The notes under the pieces are model-generated. The model saw only the letters and a program-made list of their open reading frames with translations. It ran no database searches and was not told where the DNA came from. From NCBI GenBank assembly GCA_000182565.2, contig KQ257462.1: 64,000 bases of DNA. One strand, 5' to 3'. The position numbers and the translations under genes are program-made. Of the stretch, positions 2,936 to 38,900 are shown one piece after another; position 1 is the first letter of the stretch; every line of letters begins with the position of its first letter. Source of the DNA: Spizellomyces punctatus DAOM BR117. Taxonomy: Eukaryota.

Positions 2936-3620
2936 TTACATCAAACCAACCATGGACCCAACGACCAACACCAATGTCCCAGCACTCACAGCCAAAGCTG
3001 AAGCAGAGCTCTTGGTCGCTTGGGCAGGTCCCATCGAAGAGTTGCTGCCACCAAAGACTGACGACGACAACAATGTTCCATTCTTCATCAAGGTGATCTT
3101 GGGAGTAGCAGTACCATTCCAGTTAGTGGTCTGACCGTTCTCGCACAACTGAGAGGTTTCAAAGTAGACGACAGATCCATCAGGTCCGTCAGGAAGGAGA
3201 GCCTGGAAACCAAAGTCCATGTAGGCGGTGTCGGGAAGGAAGCCGCCATGCCACGTGACCGTGTCGGTGGTCGTATTGACTGTGCCACCCTCGCTGACGA
3301 CGGGTTGAGGAAGAGGGCGCTGTGTGATAGCCAGTTGCCAGTTGGGGACCAATTGGGGCTTGAAGCTCGTTACGTTCTGAGGGACCTTTACGGTAACGCT
3401 GATGGTTGCGGTGTGATTGCATCCATGTGCTGCAAGTTGAAAAAAGTGAGCAAGTTTGTAGTAGACGCTTGATGGCAGATACAAAATACTTACGAACACG
3501 GAGAGCCGTCTGCACATTCTTTCCGGGCACTCCAACAGGAGGCACACATGTAACGTGTCCATGTATGCTCTGCACGGCGGCAGTAGCCAGGACAAGGAGA
3601 GTTGCGATAGTCTTGAACAT
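2936..3620 (-). CDS. YcnI/DUF1775-like secreted or membrane-anchored copper-binding protein (2 exons; intron 3430-3493)
   Basis: Signal peptide MFKTIATLLVLATAAVQSIHG followed by HVT. Splicing joins LRV-PHGC. Also contains VTWHGG, DFGFQALLP, SQLCENG..NW and a hydrophobic C-terminal tail. Confidence 0.75.
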
Positions 3621-4473: not shown

Positions 4474-4553
4474 ATCCTGCGCATGGGCAGATATTTATAG
4501 ATATTGTATGTAATAGTTACATTTCAGAAAAAAAGAATCCGATTGAAATCATA

Positions 4554-4581
4554 GTGCGGAGCCGGTGGACTTTGGCACTAG
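4554..4581 (+). repeat. Left TIR of Fanzor copy 1
   Basis: 28-bp perfect inverted match to 6860-6887. Confidence 0.95.
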
Positions 4582-4664
4582 TACAGTGATTGCAACCAAT
4601 TCAATCATAATTTTACTCGATTTAGGCACATGAACTATGGTTCGATATGGTTCGATGCAAACGA

Positions 4665-4804
4665 TGCTCCACCATTGAAAAACGGGTCCAATATGTGCGG
4701 CAATAAATGATTGAATATTCTGCAGTTGCCACACGGGTCCAATATGTGCGGCAATAAATGATTGAATATTCTGCAGTTGCTCCACCATTGAAAAACGGGT
4801 CCAA
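4665..4804. repeat. Internal duplications in the 5' region of Fanzor copy 1
   Basis: 48-bp identical copies at 4682-4729 and 4733-4780; 27-bp identical copies at 4665-4691 and 4778-4804. Confidence 0.9.
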
Positions 4805-4825
4805 CGTGCGCAGTTGTCATATTTC

Positions 4826-4832
4826 TATATAA
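4826..4832 (+). promoter_or_regulatory. Putative TATA box of Fanzor copy 1
   Basis: TATATAA about 70 nt before the ATG at 4898. The same motif lies upstream of the copy 2 ATG (35842-35848, minus strand). Confidence 0.5.
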
Positions 4833-4897
4833 CCCCCCCCCCATATCATTCTCTGCCCATTTCCCAGGCGTTCATCCATTTTTCTATTCCAATCATC

Positions 4898-6796
4898 ATG
4901 CCACCAAACAAGAAGCAAAAACTCGACAATCGACCTACCTGTCTGCATTCATGCAACAAGACTTCCTTTGCAAAGGCTTTCTTACCTAATGAGACCTACC
5001 GGCAGCGTCTTCTAGATTACATCGCCATCATCCATCAACTCGCCGACCATGCTTCCCACGCGCTGAAATTCTATCTCCTTTCAGCACCAACCTTTCCCAC
5101 GGTAAATGAAGATACAATCGAAGGCATCCTGTATCTTCTCAACAAGGGGGAGGCTTGGCATCCAAGAAAGGAAGCGAAGAAGGCATGGCGGGATAGTTTG
5201 CTGCCATACGTTCAACGGTACTGCCAAATCGTCGGCTTCGTTCATCCAAATCTACGAGGCGAGCAGCAGTCAATCAATTACCTGACAGCGAGTATGATGA
5301 CAAACCTGAAAGTCAACGTTCAAGAGCATTTTATGACGATGCTGCTCCGATATATCAATCTACGGCTGGACGTGAAGGGACGGAAAGGGCAATTTCCTCC
5401 AAAGAGTGAAGTGCGGAAAGCTTTCTTTGCTCGGCTACGCTACTTGAAGTCGATTTTCCTTTTTGATGTCGTGCCCGAGTCACTGGATGACTTGACTGCT
5501 GAAGAGAGTGAGCTTCTAGAAGAGATGTGGTCATTGGATCTCCCATTCCTTCCCAACAATCCCCTTGCCTACGCCATTGTTGCTGATCCGATGTCATTTT
5601 TTCCCGCGTACTGCAAACTCTCTGGGCTGTATGAACGATATGGCTTCCGACGGTTCAGTGCAATACCTCTGCGCCGCTCGCTCATTCAAAGTCACGTGCG
5701 AATCGACACCATCATCCTGTACCAGCATATCCTTTGCATCACACGTCCAGAAGCAGAAGCGGTCGAAAAGGATGATCTGTGGTTGCGGGTCTGTAATCTA
5801 TGTACCAAGGCTTTTCGGTCTCGCCGCGGTATGCAGTTTGAAGGCTCGATCACGACGGATGGTACCTCGGTGTCGGTTTACTTGAAACACCCTGATGCCG
5901 ACAAGTATGGAAGGCGCGGGGGTGGGAAAAAGTCAGCAAAAACGATGGAGGCGGAGGTTAAAGCGGTATATGTGGAGAACAACTTGCCTGCTTGTCGAGC
6001 AGCAGAGAACATTGTCGTTATCGACCCAAACAAGCGCGACATTCTCTACTGCCAAGACAGCAATGGTGCGACAATGTTTCGCTACACCGCCAATCAACGC
6101 TGCAGGGAGACTGGCAGCCGGCAATTTGCAAAGAGACGAGAAGCAATGAAGAAGGAAGCGGGAATTGACCTCATAGACTCACGAATACCATCCCCCAAGA
6201 CGATGAATCTCATGGACTTCATGCGTTACCTTCTCGTTCGCCGCGCTGATTGGGATCGTCGCAAGGAGTTCTACTCCCATCCTGCCCACACGCGGTGGAA
6301 GTGGCACTCTTTCATCAATCGGCAGCGAAGTGAATCGGACCTCATAAGCAACATGCGCGACAAGTTTGGGAACTTCACCGTTGTGATGGGTGATTGGAGC
6401 GATGCCGGCCGAACTGCAAAATTTCAGACCTCATCAAAGACAAAAGGCTGGCGCATTCTGTTCAGGCGCAATCGCATCAACTGCTTCCTGATTGATGAAC
6501 ACAAGACCTCATCTGTTTGCCCTCGCTGTTTGGCCTCATACAACGACTTCCTTGAAAAGGACTTCAAACAACGACCTCATTCAAGACCTTGGCGGCGACG
6601 AGAAGGCAAGGTTGAAGATGTCCATGGCTTGCTGGGTTGTACCAACCCTAACTGTTTGCAGCAAGACTGGACGACAATGCGCTACTGGAATCGAGATACG
6701 CTGGCAACGTGCAATATGCTGACAATCGTGCAATCAATGTTGGATGGGCACGGTAGACCAGAAAGGTTCAGCAGAAGCGTTCCAGCTATAGCGTAG
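4898..6796 (+). CDS. Fz1: Fanzor1 RNA-guided DNA endonuclease (TnpB-like, SpuFz1 family), 632 aa
   Basis: Intronless. ATG at 4898 (MPPNKKQK, NLS-like) aligns with the start of copy 2. RuvC-I VVIDPNKRD (D376), RuvC-II LIDEHKTS (E534), zinc finger CPRC..CTNPNC, RuvC-III WNRD (D600). Confidence 0.95.
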   Translation: MPPNKKQKLDNRPTCLHSCNKTSFAKAFLPNETYRQRLLDYIAIIHQLADHASHALKFYLLSAPTFPTVNEDTIEGILYLLNKGEAWHPRKEAKKAWRDSLLPYVQRYCQIVGFVHPNLRGEQQSINYLTASMMTNLKVNVQEHFMTMLLRYINLRLDVKGRKGQFPPKSEVRKAFFARLRYLKSIFLFDVVPESLDDLTAEESELLEEMWSLDLPFLPNNPLAYAIVADPMSFFPAYCKLSGLYERYGFRRFSAIPLRRSLIQSHVRIDTIILYQHILCITRPEAEAVEKDDLWLRVCNLCTKAFRSRRGMQFEGSITTDGTSVSVYLKHPDADKYGRRGGGKKSAKTMEAEVKAVYVENNLPACRAAENIVVIDPNKRDILYCQDSNGATMFRYTANQRCRETGSRQFAKRREAMKKEAGIDLIDSRIPSPKTMNLMDFMRYLLVRRADWDRRKEFYSHPAHTRWKWHSFINRQRSESDLISNMRDKFGNFTVVMGDWSDAGRTAKFQTSSKTKGWRILFRRNRINCFLIDEHKTSSVCPRCLASYNDFLEKDFKQRPHSRPWRRREGKVEDVHGLLGCTNPNCLQQDWTTMRYWNRDTLATCNMLTIVQSMLDGHGRPERFSRSVPAIA

Positions 6797-6814
6797 CGTA
6801 GATTGGTTAGATTA

Positions 6815-6904
6815 GCTTATCCGAACCGGTTGTCGCCGGTTCATTCCCTGGTGCGGGTGCTAGTGCCAAAGTCCACCGGCTCCGCACTAAGTAATAGGGG
6901 GAGG
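6815..6904 (+). ncRNA. Predicted Fanzor omegaRNA, copy 1 (scaffold ~6815-6889, guide ~6890-6904 AGTAATAGGGGGAGG)
   Basis: 75-nt block conserved with copy 2 (8 substitutions). Hairpin GAACCGG-ttgtcg-CCGGTTC (6823-6842); GTGCGGG can pair with TCCGCAC. Similarity stops abruptly after ..CCGCACTA. Ends are inferred. Confidence 0.85.
6860..6887 (-). repeat. Right TIR of Fanzor copy 1
   Basis: CTAGTGCCAAAGTCCACCGGCTCCGCAC, the inverted copy of 4554-4581. Confidence 0.95.
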
Positions 6905-7669
6905 TGTTCTAGTCAGCAACCCTTTCAAAATCTTCAAGGGAGTACTCCTCAGTGTTCGTCATACTAACCCAACGGGATTCCTCCGGTATATGAATCATCT
7001 TCACAATATCATCTGCAAACGTAACATTAAGTTGACACTTTGCAAATCTGTTTTTTCTCCCGGCTACACGTTGGAAGATTCTGTCAATGCGTCCTATGTA
7101 TTGGGTAGGTTGGAAGTAGTCCAAGGTAACATTCTGAGCTATGCGTTAGCAACTCAGACAGATGTACAAGCCCCTTTAAAACTGGAAAATACCTTGTTAG
7201 AGGGGTCTTGAAAACCCCTTGCCGAGATTTTGAAGAGTTCTCCCATGGGTTCGACGCAAAGGCCAATATAGCTCCCCTGATGCTCGTTTTGCTTTGGTTT
7301 AAATAGCAGATACATGGTCAACGTTTTGAAAGTAGCTGGCTGAGCCATTGTCTCAGGTGACGGCTGCAGGGCACCATTTTCATCAAGAGACATGCCCTGA
7401 AACGTAGTAGATAGCGACATTCTGAGTTGGTTGAACCGAGCGGAGTTCTCTTAGCGATCTCACACGCTGATGACTGACGGTGACCAAGCTGTATAACTGA
7501 ACGCTCCGAACGACAATGGACACAGGCTATTGAAATATCGTCCAAGCAAACTGGAAGCAGTCAATAAACAGGCTTCCAGCCGATGTTGTACCTGACGCTG
7601 GCAGACTCTCAGTGTTCTGGCAGATCAACGTAAAGACATTTCGTCCGTTTCTGAAAGCCCCAATGTTCC

Positions 7670-11371: not shown

Positions 11372-11923
11372 GTTGCGCTATTGATTCATATACCTATCCT
11401 GTCTTCCCATGCATAATTACACGAATCACACATTGTTCTGGTACACTTAATTTTTGGACATTTCAAATTGAAGCGATATTATTGTGGAAGGGAACTGTTG
11501 ATTATCCATGTACAGTTTCCGTCCAAATCCAAAGTTAATACGCATATCTGCTGTCTGCGCTACGAACCAACGAGTAGGGAAATTGTGGAGCAGGCGAGTG
11601 AGGTGATACAAAATGATCTCGCAAGGTCAAGCTCGTTGAGTTCGGTAGCCCATTCGTAAATCTTGTATTGATGCAAGAGCTGGGAACCATTCCCTCATAT
11701 ATATAAAGGATTATGAATGTTCCTTTTCAGTGACAGGGCTGACATAACGCTCTACGGTCATCAAGAGAAAACCAAATCACGGTACTCTGTGATTTCAAAG
11801 ATAATCTTCTGATGTACTAAAGATGACAGACGGCCCCAAGTGTCTCCAGCTATGCAGATACCATCCGTAACAAGATTTGGCGGGTCGAATCAACAAAAAA
11901 CATTTTCTTCTCCGTAACCCAAG

Positions 11924-12005
11924 TGCACGCTGTGAGATTCGAACTCACGCCTCTTTCGAGACTGGAACTTGAGACCAGCTCCTTAGACCGCTCGGACAAG
12001 CGTGC
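11924..12005 (-). tRNA. tRNA-Leu (anticodon CAA), intronless, long variable arm
   Basis: Minus strand reads GCACGCTTGTCCGAGCGGTCTAAGGAGCTGGTCTCAAGTTCCAGTCTCGAAAGAGGCGTGAGTTCGAATCTCACAGCGTGCA: acceptor stem, D loop, CT-CAA-GT anticodon loop, TTCGAAT T loop. A T6 Pol III terminator lies at 11895-11900. Confidence 0.95.
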
Positions 12006-32300: not shown

Positions 32301-33798
32301 GAGAAGCATTTTTGAGACGACTGCGTCGTAGCCAAATTTGGGCTCAACTTGGGATAGTCCGGCCTGCATTTTTTGGTAGTTGGTACATCAGGTCGGTAAG
32401 CAAACCTGACCATTCCCAGGACTGGTGAGGAGACTTTTGCTGAGCAGTTTAATTTCTGCCTTGGATTCACTAAACTTTATATCATTTTGTGGTGTCTCTA
32501 ATGTCCAACAAGTCTGCGAGGGCTGGTCGATCCCTGGAACTGACCTCGCCATCTGAACAGAATTTCTATACGAGTGCGAAAATAATCTGCCAGCAAAGCT
32601 GGCGTTCCGCACTCCGTGACATGAGCATCAAAACCCGAAGGTTTCTCATTGCTCAGCGGCTCCGTATCAAAGACCAGCTGGTCGACGTTTCTGTCCGTGA
32701 CGGGAACATTCCGCCCTGCCTACAGTACTAGCTACTAGTACTACCCCTATTAGTACGAAGATCAGTCGTTTATAACGCATACGGCGACGGTTTACCACTG
32801 TCGGAACGCGCATTGGACTTCCCGTACCTTTTCTGCTCCTGATCGGAAGTAAACCCAATATGACGTTTTCTTCTGGATATTAATTGTTTATGAAGGAACA
32901 GACATGTATCTCATGCTGAATGTAGTGTCCTCGATGTTGACATGTCTATCTGCCTGACAGGGACCTCCACATTCATTCACCATAGCTGAGAGCAATGTGA
33001 AAGCGAAGATACGTCGTTGGCAGGTCTATTTGGTATTGTGGCGGTTCACAGTATTGCAATTGCAGCAAATCCGGTCTTCTTCATTTTGCCTTTTTCTCCT
33101 TTCGCATATGGCTGCAAGCATGCTACACAGAGAGGTGATGCTTTGTTATATAATGGATATAATGGAAGATTTCACTTGACGAGGACGAGTGGATGGAACA
33201 ACTTGGCGGTGTGCCACGGCACTCCTACTGATACCGCAAATTCGGGTTCCTTCCACATACTTGGATTTGGTCTACTTTCTAATAATGTCTGATTCATTAG
33301 ATAATTAAAGCTGTTATGGGAGACAGAATTACATACAGTATCAAACCACTTTTTACCACTGGGGCAGATTTAACGGACGACATCTACGCCAAAAAAAAAA
33401 AGCATGCGCAGATGCATTACCTCTTGGCGCAACAAGCCCACCAGAACAAGACTTGATTGTTCTCCAAACATGCTCGCTCCTGACTAAAGTCACAAGTTAG
33501 CAGATTCGCTACCCTACTTCTCCGGTAAACTCCCTTCATCTTTTTTTAAAAGCAAAAATTCATTTGTTGGTATTCTTCTTCTAGGAGCGTGGAAATGCTT
33601 AGGCTTTCCGTAGCATTTTCTACATCATTGCCGCCATTACCTGTGCCGGTCTATTGGCATCCCTATTCTTCAAGCACATTCCTTTAAAGTAGAAATACAT
33701 GGGCTGATGACGAAGGTTAAATGCAGAATACAATAATAGGGTAGTGCTGCAACTAAGAGTCCATGTGATATTCAAACATGAACTATGGTGGTCTTCTG

Positions 33799-33888
33799 TT
33801 AAACGTTTATATCTAGTGCGGAGCCGATGGGTATTGGCACTAGCACCCGCACCAGGAATTGAACCGGCGACAACCAGCTCGGATAAGC
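33799..33888 (-). ncRNA. Predicted Fanzor omegaRNA, copy 2 (scaffold ~33888-33814, guide ~33813-33799 GATATAAACGTTTAA)
   Basis: Minus strand reads GCTTATCCGAGCTGGTTGTCGCCGGTTCAATTCCTGGTGCGGGTGCTAGTGCCAATACCCATCGGCTCCGCACTA, colinear with the copy 1 scaffold. Ends are inferred. Confidence 0.85.
33816..33843 (+). repeat. Right TIR of Fanzor copy 2
   Basis: 28-bp perfect inverted match to 35925-35952. Confidence 0.95.
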
Positions 33889-33901
33889 TAATCTAACCAA
33901 T

Positions 33902-35791
33902 CTACGCTACGGCTGGAACACCCCTGCTGAACACCTCTGGTCTACCGTGCCCATCCAACATTGATTGCACGATTGTCAGCATATTACAGGTTGCCAGCGT
34001 ATCTCGGTTCCAGTAGCGCATCGTCCAGGCTTGCTGACAGTTAGGGTTGGTACAACCCAGCAATCCATGGACTTTTTCAATCTTGCCTTCGCGACGGCGC
34101 CAAGGTCTTGAATGAGGTCGTGTTTTGAAGTCCTTTTCAAGGAAGTCATCAGATGAGGCCAAACAGCGAGGGCAGACAGATGAGGTCTTGTACTCGTCGA
34201 GAAGGAAGCAGTTGATCCTGTTCCGCTTAAAGAGGGTGCGCCAACCTTTCGTCTTTGATGAGGTCTGAAATCTCGCAGTTCGACCGGCGTCGCTCCAATC
34301 ACCCATCACAATGGTGAAGTTTTCGCCGTACTTGTTGCGCATGTTGGATATGAGGTCTGATTCGCTCTTCTGACGGTTTATGAATGCGTGCCATTTCCAT
34401 CGAGTATGAGCAGGGTGGGAGTAGAACTCCTTTCGACGATCCCAATCAGCGCGGCGAACGAGAAGGTAACGCATGAAGTCTATGAGGTTCATCGTCTTGT
34501 GGCTTGGGATACGTGATTCTATGAGGTCAATACCGCCAGCTTTCATCCGCTGCCGTTCTTTTGCAAATCGACGGCTTCCAGTCTCCATGCAGCGTTGATT
34601 GGCGGTGTAACGGAAGATGGTGCCCTTGTTGTCTTGGCAGTAGAGAATGTCGCGCTTGTTTGGATCGATAACGACAATGTTCTCTTGACAAGCAGATAAG
34701 TTGTTTTCCACATACAGCGCCTTCACCTCAGCTGCTAGAGCCTTTGCTGACTTTCTCGCTCCGCGCTTTCCGTACTTGTCAGCTTCTGGGTGCTTTAGGT
34801 ATACAGACACCGAGGTTCCGTCTGTCGTGATCGAGCCTTCAAAATGCATACCACAGCGAGACCGAAAAGCTTTGGTACGTAGATTACAGACGCGCAACCA
34901 TAAATCGACCTTCTCTACGGCTTCTGCTTCTTGGCGGGTGATGCAGAGGATGTGGGCGTAGAGAATGACCGTGTCGATGCGAATATGGCTTTGGATGAGA
35001 GAGCGGCGCAGAGGTATCGCGCTGAACTGTTGAAAACCTTGCTGCTCGAACAACTTTGACAGTCGGCAGTATGCAGGAAAGAAGGACATCGCGTCGATGG
35101 CAATGAGGTAGGCAAGCGGCTTGTCTTGATCAGGAAATGGCAGGTTAAGTGTCCAGATCTCTTCTAAAATCTCGTTTTCAAGAATGCTCAAGTCATCCAG
35201 TGATTCTGGCATAGTTTCGAAAAGGAAAACCGACTTCAAGTAGTGTAGCTGAGTAAAGAAAGCTTGCCGCGCATCGCTTTTCAGTGGCAGTCGCTGCTTC
35301 TGTCCCTTCACGTCGAGCCGCAGATTGATATACCGAAGGAGCATCTGCATGAAATGCTCTTGAACGTTGACTTTCAGGTTCGTCATCATACTCGCTGTCA
35401 GGTAATTGACTGATTGCTGCTCGCCTCGTAGATTTGGGTGAACAAAGCCGACGATTTGGCAGTACCGTTGAACATATGGCAGCAAACAATCCCGCCATGC
35501 CTTCTTTGCTTCCTTTCTTGGATGCCAAGCCTCTCCTTTGTTGAGAAGATAGAGAATTGCTTCGATTGTATCTTCATTTACCGTGGGAAAGGTTGGTGCA
35601 GATAGGATGTAGAATTTGAGAGCGTGGGAAGCGTGGTCAGCGAGTTGATGGATGATGGCGATGTAATCTAGAAGACGCTGCCGGTAGGTCTCGTTTGGCA
35701 AGAAAGCTTTTGCAAAGGAAGTCTTGTTGCAGGTATGTAAGCAAGTAGGTTTGTCGAGTTTTTCAAGCTTTTGCTTTTTCTTTGGCGGCAT
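33902..35791 (-). CDS. Fz1: Fanzor1 RNA-guided DNA endonuclease (TnpB-like, SpuFz1 family), 629 aa
   Basis: Intronless; MPPKKKQK NLS-like start. RuvC-I VVIDPNKRD (D376), RuvC-II LLDEYKTS (E533), CPRC..CTNPNC zinc finger, WNRD (D597). Colinear paralog of 4898-6796. Confidence 0.95.
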   Translation of the reverse strand: MPPKKKQKLEKLDKPTCLHTCNKTSFAKAFLPNETYRQRLLDYIAIIHQLADHASHALKFYILSAPTFPTVNEDTIEAILYLLNKGEAWHPRKEAKKAWRDCLLPYVQRYCQIVGFVHPNLRGEQQSVNYLTASMMTNLKVNVQEHFMQMLLRYINLRLDVKGQKQRLPLKSDARQAFFTQLHYLKSVFLFETMPESLDDLSILENEILEEIWTLNLPFPDQDKPLAYLIAIDAMSFFPAYCRLSKLFEQQGFQQFSAIPLRRSLIQSHIRIDTVILYAHILCITRQEAEAVEKVDLWLRVCNLRTKAFRSRCGMHFEGSITTDGTSVSVYLKHPEADKYGKRGARKSAKALAAEVKALYVENNLSACQENIVVIDPNKRDILYCQDNKGTIFRYTANQRCMETGSRRFAKERQRMKAGGIDLIESRIPSHKTMNLIDFMRYLLVRRADWDRRKEFYSHPAHTRWKWHAFINRQKSESDLISNMRNKYGENFTIVMGDWSDAGRTARFQTSSKTKGWRTLFKRNRINCFLLDEYKTSSVCPRCLASSDDFLEKDFKTRPHSRPWRRREGKIEKVHGLLGCTNPNCQQAWTMRYWNRDTLATCNMLTIVQSMLDGHGRPEVFSRGVPAVA

Positions 35792-35924
35792 GATGATATC
35801 TGTGGGAAAAGATGAAAGCCTGGGAAAATGGGCACGACAACTTATATAGGATTTTTTGGATCAAACCATAGTTCATGAGTCTAAATCGAGTAAAATTATG
35901 ATTAAATTGGTTGGAATCTATGTA

Positions 35925-35952
35925 CTAGTGCCAATACCCATCGGCTCCGCAC
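35925..35952 (-). repeat. Left TIR of Fanzor copy 2
   Basis: Inverted copy of 33816-33843. Confidence 0.95.
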
Positions 35953-38900
35953 TATGATCTGCGTCAGCCATCCCTCTCTATTGTAATATCTTGGTATTTT
36001 GGATCGAACTTGCCAGTGCTCTTGCTTGCAGTGCTTCAGTTTACTGGCCTTTCTTCTTCTTACGGACTTACTAGGAACTCACTGATGTTATGCTGCAATA
36101 AACCATCTTTATTCTTTGCCGCTGCAATACGACTAGTTCCATGGGTCTTCTAATTAAAACACTACATGGGTACTAACTTAAAGCGGCCTTAACTTCATTG
36201 GTAAATAATTCCGGACGCTGACCGAGGCACAGGAACAAAACCTTGAGGTGGCCTGAGTGAGCACCATCGATCCATTCGGGAATGGTAAAGAAGTCGAAGA
36301 GATATGTCGAACAGAAGAGTGACTATCAACCAATCATTTAACCAAACAGTAAGATGAATGCTTTACCAGAGTTTGCCAGAGTGGTTACGAACTTTCCGAC
36401 GTCTGAGAGATCTTTTGAATCGCAGGATCCGAGGAGAGGGTATCATTTTGGACCAGCCGATCGAAGATGTCCGAGTTCGTTACTGGGCAGAGAAAAGAAC
36501 CCTTGCGCAATCTGCCCTAAAAGATCGCAGTCAAGAAGAGCAACTGTTCGAAGGATATGAGACGCAAGGAAATACATACGCGAAACCCATTACAGAAGAA
36601 GGAAACGTCCTTGGCGATTTCGTCGAGTCTCTTCGTCTGTGCAACCTGGTAGAGATTGCTCTTTTCCGTTGTTCTTGTTGCGTGCATGTGGGACTCTCAC
36701 AATCTGTCATCAGTGGGACACCTTGCTCCAGAAACAATCTATGGACAGAGGAAAGCGGGAGAACAAGCACGACGTCCAAGTCATGTCATACATCTGCAGG
36801 GCGAAACTTTGATCGGATTCATAGGAATCGATCGAATGCTGCCCACCACGACTAGCCAAAGCCGCCAATATGTCTAGCTCTCTTAGTTACGGGCATTTAG
36901 GCTATTTTGACCAAAATCAACTGAGGGCAAGTCTTTTGCGATCCTGCGTATGCGAACAACCGCCGTTCGTCACTCGAGGTCAACAGGGTACTTTCGAAAA
37001 TAACTGCATTGTAGTTTTGTTTTCCCTTGACAATATTGATACAAGAGTCAATTGTGATTTCGATGCCTGTCTTGGGATATGCAAAGGGATCTGATACCTT
37101 TTTTTTATCAATTCGAGTATCCCTTTTCCGCCCACCATGTCCGAATCCGGTTAACATCGCTGAGCCTTATCGGTATGCCGTTACATTTTCTGCAGTTGTA
37201 CGCATGTAAGAAGGAAGAAAGCAATAATAAGAAACCGACCCTTCTCGCGACAGGTTCTATGGTCATCCGCAATCTCCCGACCGAGCCGCTTCGCAGTCGT
37301 ATTGGCACTGTTTGTCGCCGGCATGACGGACTTCAAGGACCTCGAGGTATCCAAGATTGAGCACAGAAATAAACGAAATTGACAGGAACAAAGGTCAGAT
37401 GATAAATGACATGACCGGCGTTGATGCAGTGTTCTTGTGTTAGACCTGAAGAAGACGGACGAAGACCGCATATTCGAGGCACTTGCATCTTTCCCACATA
37501 TAAGACCGTCTTTCATGAAGGGCGAATGGTCCGCGACTCTACCGTTTTGCAGTTGCCAGTTACCCCGGGTGCGCATGTTGCTTCATTGGCGCTCGAAGTA
37601 AGAAACAAAACAATACTGGAAGCAGTGTAGACTGTTTTCTTGCACTTCGTCAGGTTGATCCTTCTCCATCACCTTGTACCAGAACGCCGGCAAACTCCCG
37701 CTCATTTCTTCACTGTGGGCTGCCCTGCTTACCCCCTAGCCCCAAACGCCAACAAAATGCCATCATATTACCGATGATGAATTCCTCACCGCAACGGGCT
37801 TCGCTGAAGCTTGCAACTGTACATTTAACATATCACCTACAATCCGGTCTCACTCAAATAAGGTTACGCCGATTTCAATTCGTTGCGGAATTTTCAGTGA
37901 CTATCAAATCGGCGTTTGAGTAAAGCGAGGGAATAGGGATTCCACATGCATCCTGGAATCATATCGTTTTCTTTTACCAAGACTCAATTGTAGTGTGCTG
38001 GAAAACCGGCAAATCATTAGTGAAGGCCGCTCCAACGTTATGGTGAGGACGTTCTGACCATGACAGGCGAGATGCCCTTGTCGTTGGAAGAGTGGTTTAA
38101 ATAAGTGCGCCATATATTCATTTCCACTACTGATACGGAATGATGCAAGGCTGGGGAAGAAGTCAGTGGTTTATAGGTGTAGATATTATTACATCAGACC
38201 ATTAGATGCTGCTTGTGTGGGAAACCTTCAGTGTGCAGCCTACGTTAAAGGGACATTCTGAGCTGTTCCTGCAAAGATGCGGCATCCATCTTTCATCCGT
38301 TCACTTGCTGCGTTCTACCAAGTTTATCTCAACTGACGCAAGGTGAGACCACATAGCACATTGTTCTGTCGTCGAAGTGGGCAATTACCATGTCAGCGCG
38401 GTGGACCTTTCCTCTTTTCTATGTCATCCAGGTTGGGAGACTTGCAATGTATCCGTTTATATTAAGATACAGCAGAGCATCTATTACCACACTAGCTTAG
38501 GGCTGGAAACATGCATGTCGTTCTACCGAAAGTATCCCTGGGCTGTTTTCCAATTCTAGATGCGAAGACTACACTTTCATTTCCCTTCTCATTGTAACAA
38601 GCACCCATCTCATCAATCTATTCGTCCCTCAACCAAAGTGCCTTTAACTCTAACCCTTTCCCCACCTCCGGTAAATATCCACACGTGGAAGATACAGTCG
38701 TCGGAATGCTCAAGCATCTCCACAGAGCCTTCAACGTCCACATCAAATCTAGTGTTTCTAGAATGTCGACAGAGAGGTCAAGCTGCATAGTGGCCTTGAA
38801 ACCGAGTGAATGAACCGCCGACCCTTTCGAAGCCTTGTTGGGGCGTGAGTCATTTTTTCCCTCTGGAACTGGTCGCTGGTGGGTCGGTAGACCAGTTAGG

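Follow-up and report, generated by a model that had tools for sequence, protein, structure and literature searches.

Probable omegaRNA genes at the right ends of two SPu-1 Fanzor1 elements of Spizellomyces punctatus

A stretch of 64,000 nucleotides from Spizellomyces punctatus DAOM BR117 (contig KQ257462.1), hereafter the window, was analysed. Our results make it very probable that positions 6815-6904 of its plus strand, together with a twin at 33888-33799 on the minus strand, represent the omegaRNA gene of the SPu-1 Fanzor1 transposon. An omegaRNA scaffold with the right terminal inverted repeat (TIR) as its 3' part, followed by a guide of about 15 nt derived from the flank, had been proposed in an earlier note made from the letters of the sequence, and this is the layout described for the family in PMC10432273. 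The same interpretation is backed by the adjoining ORFs, which are close paralogues of SpuFz1. The RNA reading was thus supported yet already known, because the family has been published in S. punctatus, down to the 75 + 15 nt; the guide-RNA system itself is not new and the two loci are further members of the family. It brings no new biology, as the element has been on record since 2013 and papers of 2023-2024 covered the RNA together with its structure and activity. The case illustrates that a guide-RNA gene is recoverable from raw sequence, with its 75-nt scaffold, its repeat-derived 3' part and its flank guide. The modest points that may be added here are the occurrence of two scaffold variants in nature, each with an intact protein variant of its own, repeat changes that are mirrored within each element, the finding that every repeat variant lies in the stem-2 portion dispensable for activity, and apparent covariation of stem-loop 1 in uncultured relatives.

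Fanzor was the first family of RNA-guided DNA nucleases to be demonstrated in eukaryotes; its best-studied member, SpuFz1, also serves as a genome-editing scaffold. Element SPu-1 was first described by Bao and Jurka 2013, with 33-bp TIRs and putative TA duplications (PMC3627910). Saito et al. 2023 (PMC10432273) recorded 42 loci with Fz and 134 ghost loci devoid of an ORF in S. punctatus, and described 30-nt inverted repeats for Spu-1, the left one being preceded by a conserved CA. According to the same article, native small RNA-seq gave RNAs of 88-90 nt downstream of Fz at four loci only, each composed of a conserved 75-nt region and a variable extension of 14-15 nt; the omegaRNA co-purifies with SpuFz1, whose TAM is 5'-CATA. 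The cryo-EM structure (PMC10432273; PDB 8GKH) displays a 75-nt scaffold with two stems, a 6-nt linker (A29-C34) and a 15-nt guide. The distal part of stem 2 (C40-G70) was reported there to make no protein contact and to be dispensable for activity in human cells, and the SpuFz1 RNA is described as having no pseudoknot (PMC10432273). Stem-loop 1 is conserved across three Fz1 structures, and the region beyond it was proposed to be little constrained (Xu et al. 2024, PMC11423790).

Two SPu-1 elements were delineated in the window. Copy 1 occupies 4552..6889 on the plus strand (2338 bp), positions at which its homology with copy 2 begins and ends, and copy 2 occupies 33814..35954 on the minus strand (2141 bp). 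A start of the element just upstream of the ORF had to be abandoned, as the left repeats put it at 4552 in copy 1 and at 35954 in copy 2. The claim that part of the scaffold is right TIR was borne out: in copy 1, the right repeat (6860..6889, +) accounts for the final 30 nucleotides of the 75-nt scaffold (nt 46-75) and is a perfect inverse copy of the left repeat (4552..4581, +; 30 of 30 nt complementary). Likewise, the left repeat of copy 2 (35925..35954, -) is complementary at 30 of 30 positions to its right repeat (33814..33843, -), which forms the last 30 nt of the copy-2 scaffold. Both copies displayed junctions of the type CA-TA...TA-flank, with TA at either end. The CA stands 5' of the left repeat at 4550..4551 (+) in copy 1 and at 35955..35956 (-) in copy 2; joined to the TA with which the repeat opens, it gives CATA at both left junctions, the TAM published for SpuFz1. 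A 13-nt end motif occurred at exactly four sites of the window (6877-6889 (+), 33814-33826 (-), 4552-4564 (-) and 35942-35954 (+)), all of them element ends, for a chance expectation of 0.69. Motif, repeat and covariance-model searches revealed no further copies or ghost elements in the 64-kb window, and no second ORF was found inside either copy.

The repeats of the two copies differ at 4 of 30 positions, and each change is mirrored in the other repeat of the same element. Repeats are thus perfect within both elements, although 44% of synonymous sites differ between their ORFs. Mirrored changes of this kind point to distinct sublineages, with the repeats apparently under symmetric constraint, and to young insertions. 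The copies also differ in their leaders, that of copy 1 being about 185 nt longer (extra sequence within 4640-4850) and containing a perfect 51-bp tandem duplication (1.9 copies, 4682-4780) as well as a second repeated piece of 25 nt. A 14-nt exact match to the leader (4627-4640) was noticed at 33776-33789 (+), 25 nt past the right end of copy 2 and in opposite orientation; it was not retained as real homology, since one of 300 shuffles equalled its score and no longer homology accompanied it, and it is probably due to chance. The sole tRNA of the window is a tRNA-Leu (anticodon CAA) at 11923-12005 (-).

The Fanzor1 ORF of copy 1 (4898..6796, +; stop codon 6794-6796) codes for 632 aa and that of copy 2 (33902..35791, -) for 629 aa, and both are intact. 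The copy 1 protein matched the MBP-fused SpuFz1 of PDB 8GKH (8gkh_P) over residues 2-632 (E=0, 1246 bits), and Fanzor 1 from Parasitella parasitica (9CF0) at 9e-48. The Fz part of 8GKH corresponds to protein P0002 (SPPG_07727, 638 aa; 1493 bits), whose residues agree with all residue names checked from PMC10432273. Identities to P0002, i.e. SpuFz1, were 86.9% for copy 1 and 88.0% for copy 2, from which the window would hold two paralogues of the canonical SpuFz1 gene. A protein database search (E <= 1e-10) yielded 35 proteins, two of which were the window's own, 15 came from S. punctatus DAOM BR117, two from other chytrids (Gaertneriomyces and Phlyctochytrium) and 16 were others. Family membership rests on the PDB match and on PMC10432273, because neither an Rfam family nor a Pfam match was available: the Pfam scan of both proteins returned no family (label PF26935.1 lies outside the Pfam copy scanned), and Rfam gave no match at the gathering score in the whole 64-kb window.

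Key residues were well conserved in both proteins. All four catalytic Mg-binding residues (D383, N385, E541 and D606 in SpuFz1) and all six TAM-reading residues were kept in copy 1 and in copy 2. Among the residues contacting the 5' strand and stem-loop 1, 15 of 17 were kept in each copy, and among those contacting the linker and stem 2, six of eight in copy 1 and seven of eight in copy 2. The changed contact residues are Q409, R477, T593 and T601 in copy 1, and E412 and T598 in copy 2, to which a gap at the S598 position is added. Some of the contacts named for SpuFz1 in PMC10432273, namely R415 and R419 with linker phosphates and S598 and M607 with stem-loop 1, are altered in the window paralogues. 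Alongside these altered linker-contact residues, the linker sequence differs at two positions between the copies. The ORF pair displayed a synonymous difference pS of 0.44 (Sd 183.5 of S 418), a dS of 0.66 and a dN/dS of 0.14; judged by these substitution ratios, both ORFs are under purifying selection.

The scaffold of copy 1 (6815..6889, +; 75 nt) starts 19 nt past the stop codon and does not overlap the ORF; that of copy 2 lies at 33814..33888 (-; 75 nt). A near-identical sequence after the stop codon, with a 75-nt core carrying eight substitutions, had been claimed, and the gap-free alignment of 6815-6889 with 33888-33814 (-) gave exactly this number (67 of 75 positions identical; differences at 6825, 6827, 6844, 6846, 6870, 6871, 6872 and 6876). 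Set against the pS of 0.44, eight differences in 75 correspond to a binomial p of 4e-10, and the post-stop alignment of 88 nt, again with eight differences, to about 9e-13; by this comparison of aligned letters, scaffold conservation exceeds chance. Both scaffolds end in ...GGCTCCGCACTA (...CACTA) and homology stops at 6889 and 33814, respectively. The complete divergence announced beyond this shared end was also recovered, the next 15 nt of the two copies being unrelated. These 15 nt of flanking DNA (6890..6904, + in copy 1; 33799..33813, - in copy 2) are the predicted guides, with the length taken from PMC10432273. Conservation was not confined to the repeat, as the 45 nt upstream of it (6815-6859) showed four differences and are conserved like the repeat itself. 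The left end of the element is conserved as well, 11 of 95 positions being different. A tRNA-like reading of GGTTCA(A/T)T was discarded, as ARAGORN made no call there and the arms fail to pair as a T-arm.

The predicted fold of copy 1 reached -32.7 kcal/mol versus -21.8 +/- 3.2 for its shuffles (z -3.4; one of 200 as good), and that of copy 2 reached -29.0 kcal/mol (z -2.3; three of 200 as good). For both copies the prediction consisted of two stems joined by a 6-nt linker, with eight nucleotides in the loop of stem 2. The scaffold is divided into a 5' single strand of 8 nt (6815-6822 in copy 1, plus strand), stem-loop 1 at nt 9-28 (6823-6842), the linker at nt 29-34 (6843-6848; AUUCCC in copy 1) and stem 2 at nt 35-75 (6849-6889). 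Two of the pairings proposed in the earlier note were found in this fold. The 7-bp hairpin GAACCGG/CCGGTTC is present and keeps its pairing in copy 2, where A-U becomes G-U and C-G becomes U-G, and GTGCGGG pairs with TCCGCAC (37-43 with 67-73) at the base of the second stem. The eight substitutions are distributed between the 5' arm of stem-loop 1 (two), the linker (two), the stem-2 loop (three) and stem 2 (one, G-C to G-U); the three located in stems all maintain pairing by wobble and the other five are unpaired. None of the 23 pairs was changed on both sides between the two copies. Such one-sided wobble changes are not compensatory and, coming from two sequences, would count as weak evidence of structure. 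All four repeat substitutions fall within C40-G70, which is protein-free in the structure published in PMC10432273.

Published nucleotide numbers could be placed on the scaffold with a slight shift. With 6815 as nucleotide 1, nine of them fit (A29, C32, C34, U35, G37, C40, G70, A72 and A75), and published U5, C6, C7 and U16-G20 fit only with 6816 as nucleotide 1. This one-base offset may reflect either small indels relative to the canonical RNA or a 5' end that is off by one, and the 5' end of the scaffold is accordingly put at 6815, presumably to within one nucleotide on either side.

Relatives were searched for in metagenomes. A scan with a 15-protein alignment led to 15 confirmed loci out of 235 pattern matches; an earlier scan with a single protein had given 45 pattern matches, none of which was confirmed. 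The region downstream of the ORF was inspected in seven of the 15 loci, the other eight being without C-terminus or downstream flank. Locus L003 duplicates L002 in the downstream stretch, and L007 and L009 (25-26% identity, AT-rich) were left out. A covariance model based on copies 1 and 2 matched L010 over its full length at 3326-3417, directly after an Fz remnant (17.3 bits, E 0.014; 17.4 bits and E 0.0034 with filters off), and L006 at 3189-3242, directly after the ORF (13.1 bits, E 0.046). All other matches either fell on copies 1 and 2 and their left repeats or were non-significant (E > 3); for L005, the model favours a hairpin different from the one aligned (6.2 bits, E 3.2, not significant). 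Sequence L010:2847-3417 looks like an ORF-truncated element of about 570 bp, comprising the last ~150 Fz codons and a full scaffold-like RNA, with CA before its left end. These sequence features make it a derivative of the ghost-like type from outside S. punctatus.

In all six folded sequences (the two window copies, L010, L006, L005 and L002) the hairpin begins directly after UCC. In this set, where the starts at UCC were set by eye and L002 stands one column off register, 78.6% of the cells of the 7-pair stem-loop-1 helix were paired, versus 59.6 +/- 5.2% in shuffles (none of 500 reached the observed value). The covariation score was 0.676 versus 0.301 (reached by one of 500 shuffles), and changes on both sides were recorded in five of the seven pairs, a count reached by 87 of 500 shuffles. 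This helix register was superior to all slid registers, the next best (+1) being 61.9% paired. The comparison across relatives concerned stem-loop 1 only, because no inverted-repeat partners were found for L002, L005 and L006. These alignments support covariation of stem-loop 1 in uncultured metagenomic relatives (46-57% protein identity, best segment).

Four sequencing runs (X1, X2, X8 and X10) out of ten found, none of them labelled small RNA, were compared with positions 6600-7050. Neither reads nor contigs from X10 and X1 matched this region, and in X2, a run of unspecified kind that may itself have given rise to the window sequence, a contig of 1118 nt matches 6820-7050 without differences. 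Run X8 is a long-RNA library with unspecified strand convention, used as raw 60-letter reads representing about 6% of the run. It provided 2726 reads on 6600-7050, of which 2705 fit only partly. Depth was 5-30x at the end of the ORF, 1035-2492x at 6808-6855 and 17-63x at 6856-7031 (about 40-60x over 6856-6983). The reads of the peak (6808-6855) diverge before 6812/6820, with heterogeneous 5' flanks, and again behind 6853, and 1011 of 1033 show the change 6819 A>T; they therefore come from other, related loci. They share scaffold nt 1-39 only, then differ in stem 2, and are about 50 times deeper than this locus. These reads are probably omegaRNAs of ORF-less ghost elements located elsewhere in the genome. 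Thirteen X8 reads run on behind 6869 with the copy-2 repeat type. Junction 6889/6890 is spanned at about 45x without pile-up of ends, and these reads could stem either from transcription continuing past the element end into the flank or from a host transcript next to it. In this long-RNA library, neither 6815 nor 6904 coincided with a molecule end.

The conserved 90 nt could alternatively be a transposon end only (repeat plus subterminal transposase-binding sequence) or the 3' UTR of an mRNA, at loci that are silent or decaying and give no guide RNA. This would be in line with X8, a long-RNA library in which no locus-specific small RNA was seen, with the finding that no more than four genomic loci gave the RNA (PMC10432273), and with the similar conservation of the left end, for which no RNA role is known. 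However, positions 6815-6859, outside the repeat, are as conserved as the repeat and would form the stem-loop 1 contacted by the protein, and this same hairpin appears to covary in relatives. Moreover, the ORFs are intact, bear the mark of purifying selection and keep RNA-contact residues, and the perfect repeats of both elements suggest young, functional copies, all of which leaves a mere transposon end or 3' UTR with very little probability. Least credible of all was a scaffold switching between two folds, with the 5' arm of stem-loop 1 paired to CGGCTC of the right repeat as a regulatory conformer: this pairing, suggested in the earlier note, can be written, and better so in copy 2, where an A-to-G change removes an A-C mismatch (forced fold -22.3 kcal/mol versus -16.9 in copy 1), but it costs 15.8 (copy 1) and 6.7 kcal/mol (copy 2) relative to the two-stem fold, its pairs 12-65 and 14-63 have a probability of 0.0000, the solved cryo-EM structure gives two stems and a linker, and activity in human cells does not require the part of the repeat concerned (within C40-G70; PMC10432273).

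An omegaRNA gene thus remains the preferred reading of both segments. Both window loci presumably produce the RNA, and small RNA, protein binding and cleavage would carry over to them from the close paralogues studied in the S. punctatus literature. A transcript from the plus strand of the element would read through the right repeat into the flanking DNA and be trimmed to about 90 nt, corresponding to the 75-nt scaffold and a guide of 14-15 nt. Behind the 6-nt linker, the base of stem 2 would be made of nt 35-39 paired with the five terminal bases of the repeat, and the guide would be the sequence adjoining each particular insertion. The ribonucleoprotein would then cut double-stranded DNA bearing CATA followed by a match to the guide. 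As both insertions are organized as CA-TA[element]TA-guide and TA duplications are putative for this element, the element-free site, CA-TA-guide, would be a CATA + guide target, as in the keep/re-copy model for TnpB; this suggests a link between target-site duplication and TAM. No T run was found behind either guide, which makes trimming down to the 15 nt protected by the protein a likelier origin of their 3' end than a terminator.

A wider joint reading combines dual coding of the right repeat with the programming of Fanzor mostly by ORF-less elements, and is offered here as a tentative and rather doubtful proposal. In its first part, both repeats would have changed together at four positions in different SPu-1 sublineages, the repeat-derived scaffold being under symmetric constraint from a putative trans-acting transposase, and the nuclease would hold no more than stem-loop 1 and the five terminal bases. 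In the RNA, the four repeat changes consist of the three in the stem-2 loop and the G-C to G-U replacement, all in the distal part. As to the second part, if the X8 peak reads are ghost omegaRNAs, most of the cellular Fanzor protein would be programmed by ORF-less elements.

Among known systems, the closest are SpuFz1 and its element Spu-1, with which the window elements share a single ORF, 30-nt inverted repeats, CA at the left, TA at both ends and a size of about 2.1 kb. Likewise, the RNAs agree in their two stems, the 6-nt linker between them and the 8 nt of the stem-2 loop (as predicted here), as well as in having a variable sequence past the repeat. Unlike the canonical SpuFz1 gene, the window contains two other paralogous loci, on a different contig (717,070 bp versus 566,506 bp for that of P0002). 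Their RNAs depart from the canonical one by variants in stem-loop 1, linker and stem-2 loop and by a numbering shift of one base within the first 20 nt, and copy 1 further departs from canonical Spu-1 by its leader, about 185 nt longer and with the 51-bp tandem duplication. Ghost Spu-1 elements (ORF-less, about 550 nt), as described in PMC10432273, display a similar scaffold at their right end; in contrast to them, both window loci have the Fz gene in full and a stem-2 loop of the canonical 8-nt type.

The omegaRNA of TnpB (reRNA; IS200/IS605, e.g. ISDra2) is comparable in that a guide RNA is located at the right end of the element and reads through into the flank, with the TAM at the left flank, the element-free site as target and a RuvC nuclease gene just upstream (PMC10432273). 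The SpuFz1 RNA differs from it in having no pseudoknot according to PMC10432273, and the window scaffold in having no overlap with the ORF. Unlike IS200/IS605 elements, which are marked by subterminal hairpins, a TnpA (HUH) transposase and a pseudoknotted scaffold that overlaps the 3' end of tnpB, those of the window display inverted repeats and a putative TA duplication instead of hairpin ends, and contain no transposase. Membership in the bacterial TnpB/IS200-IS605 omegaRNA family was therefore rejected on four grounds, namely the absence of ORF overlap, the inverted-repeat ends, the lack of a second ORF and the absence of a pseudoknot. By analogy, the RNA encoded at the right ends of these two SPu-1 elements would work like a TnpB omegaRNA while standing outside that bacterial family.
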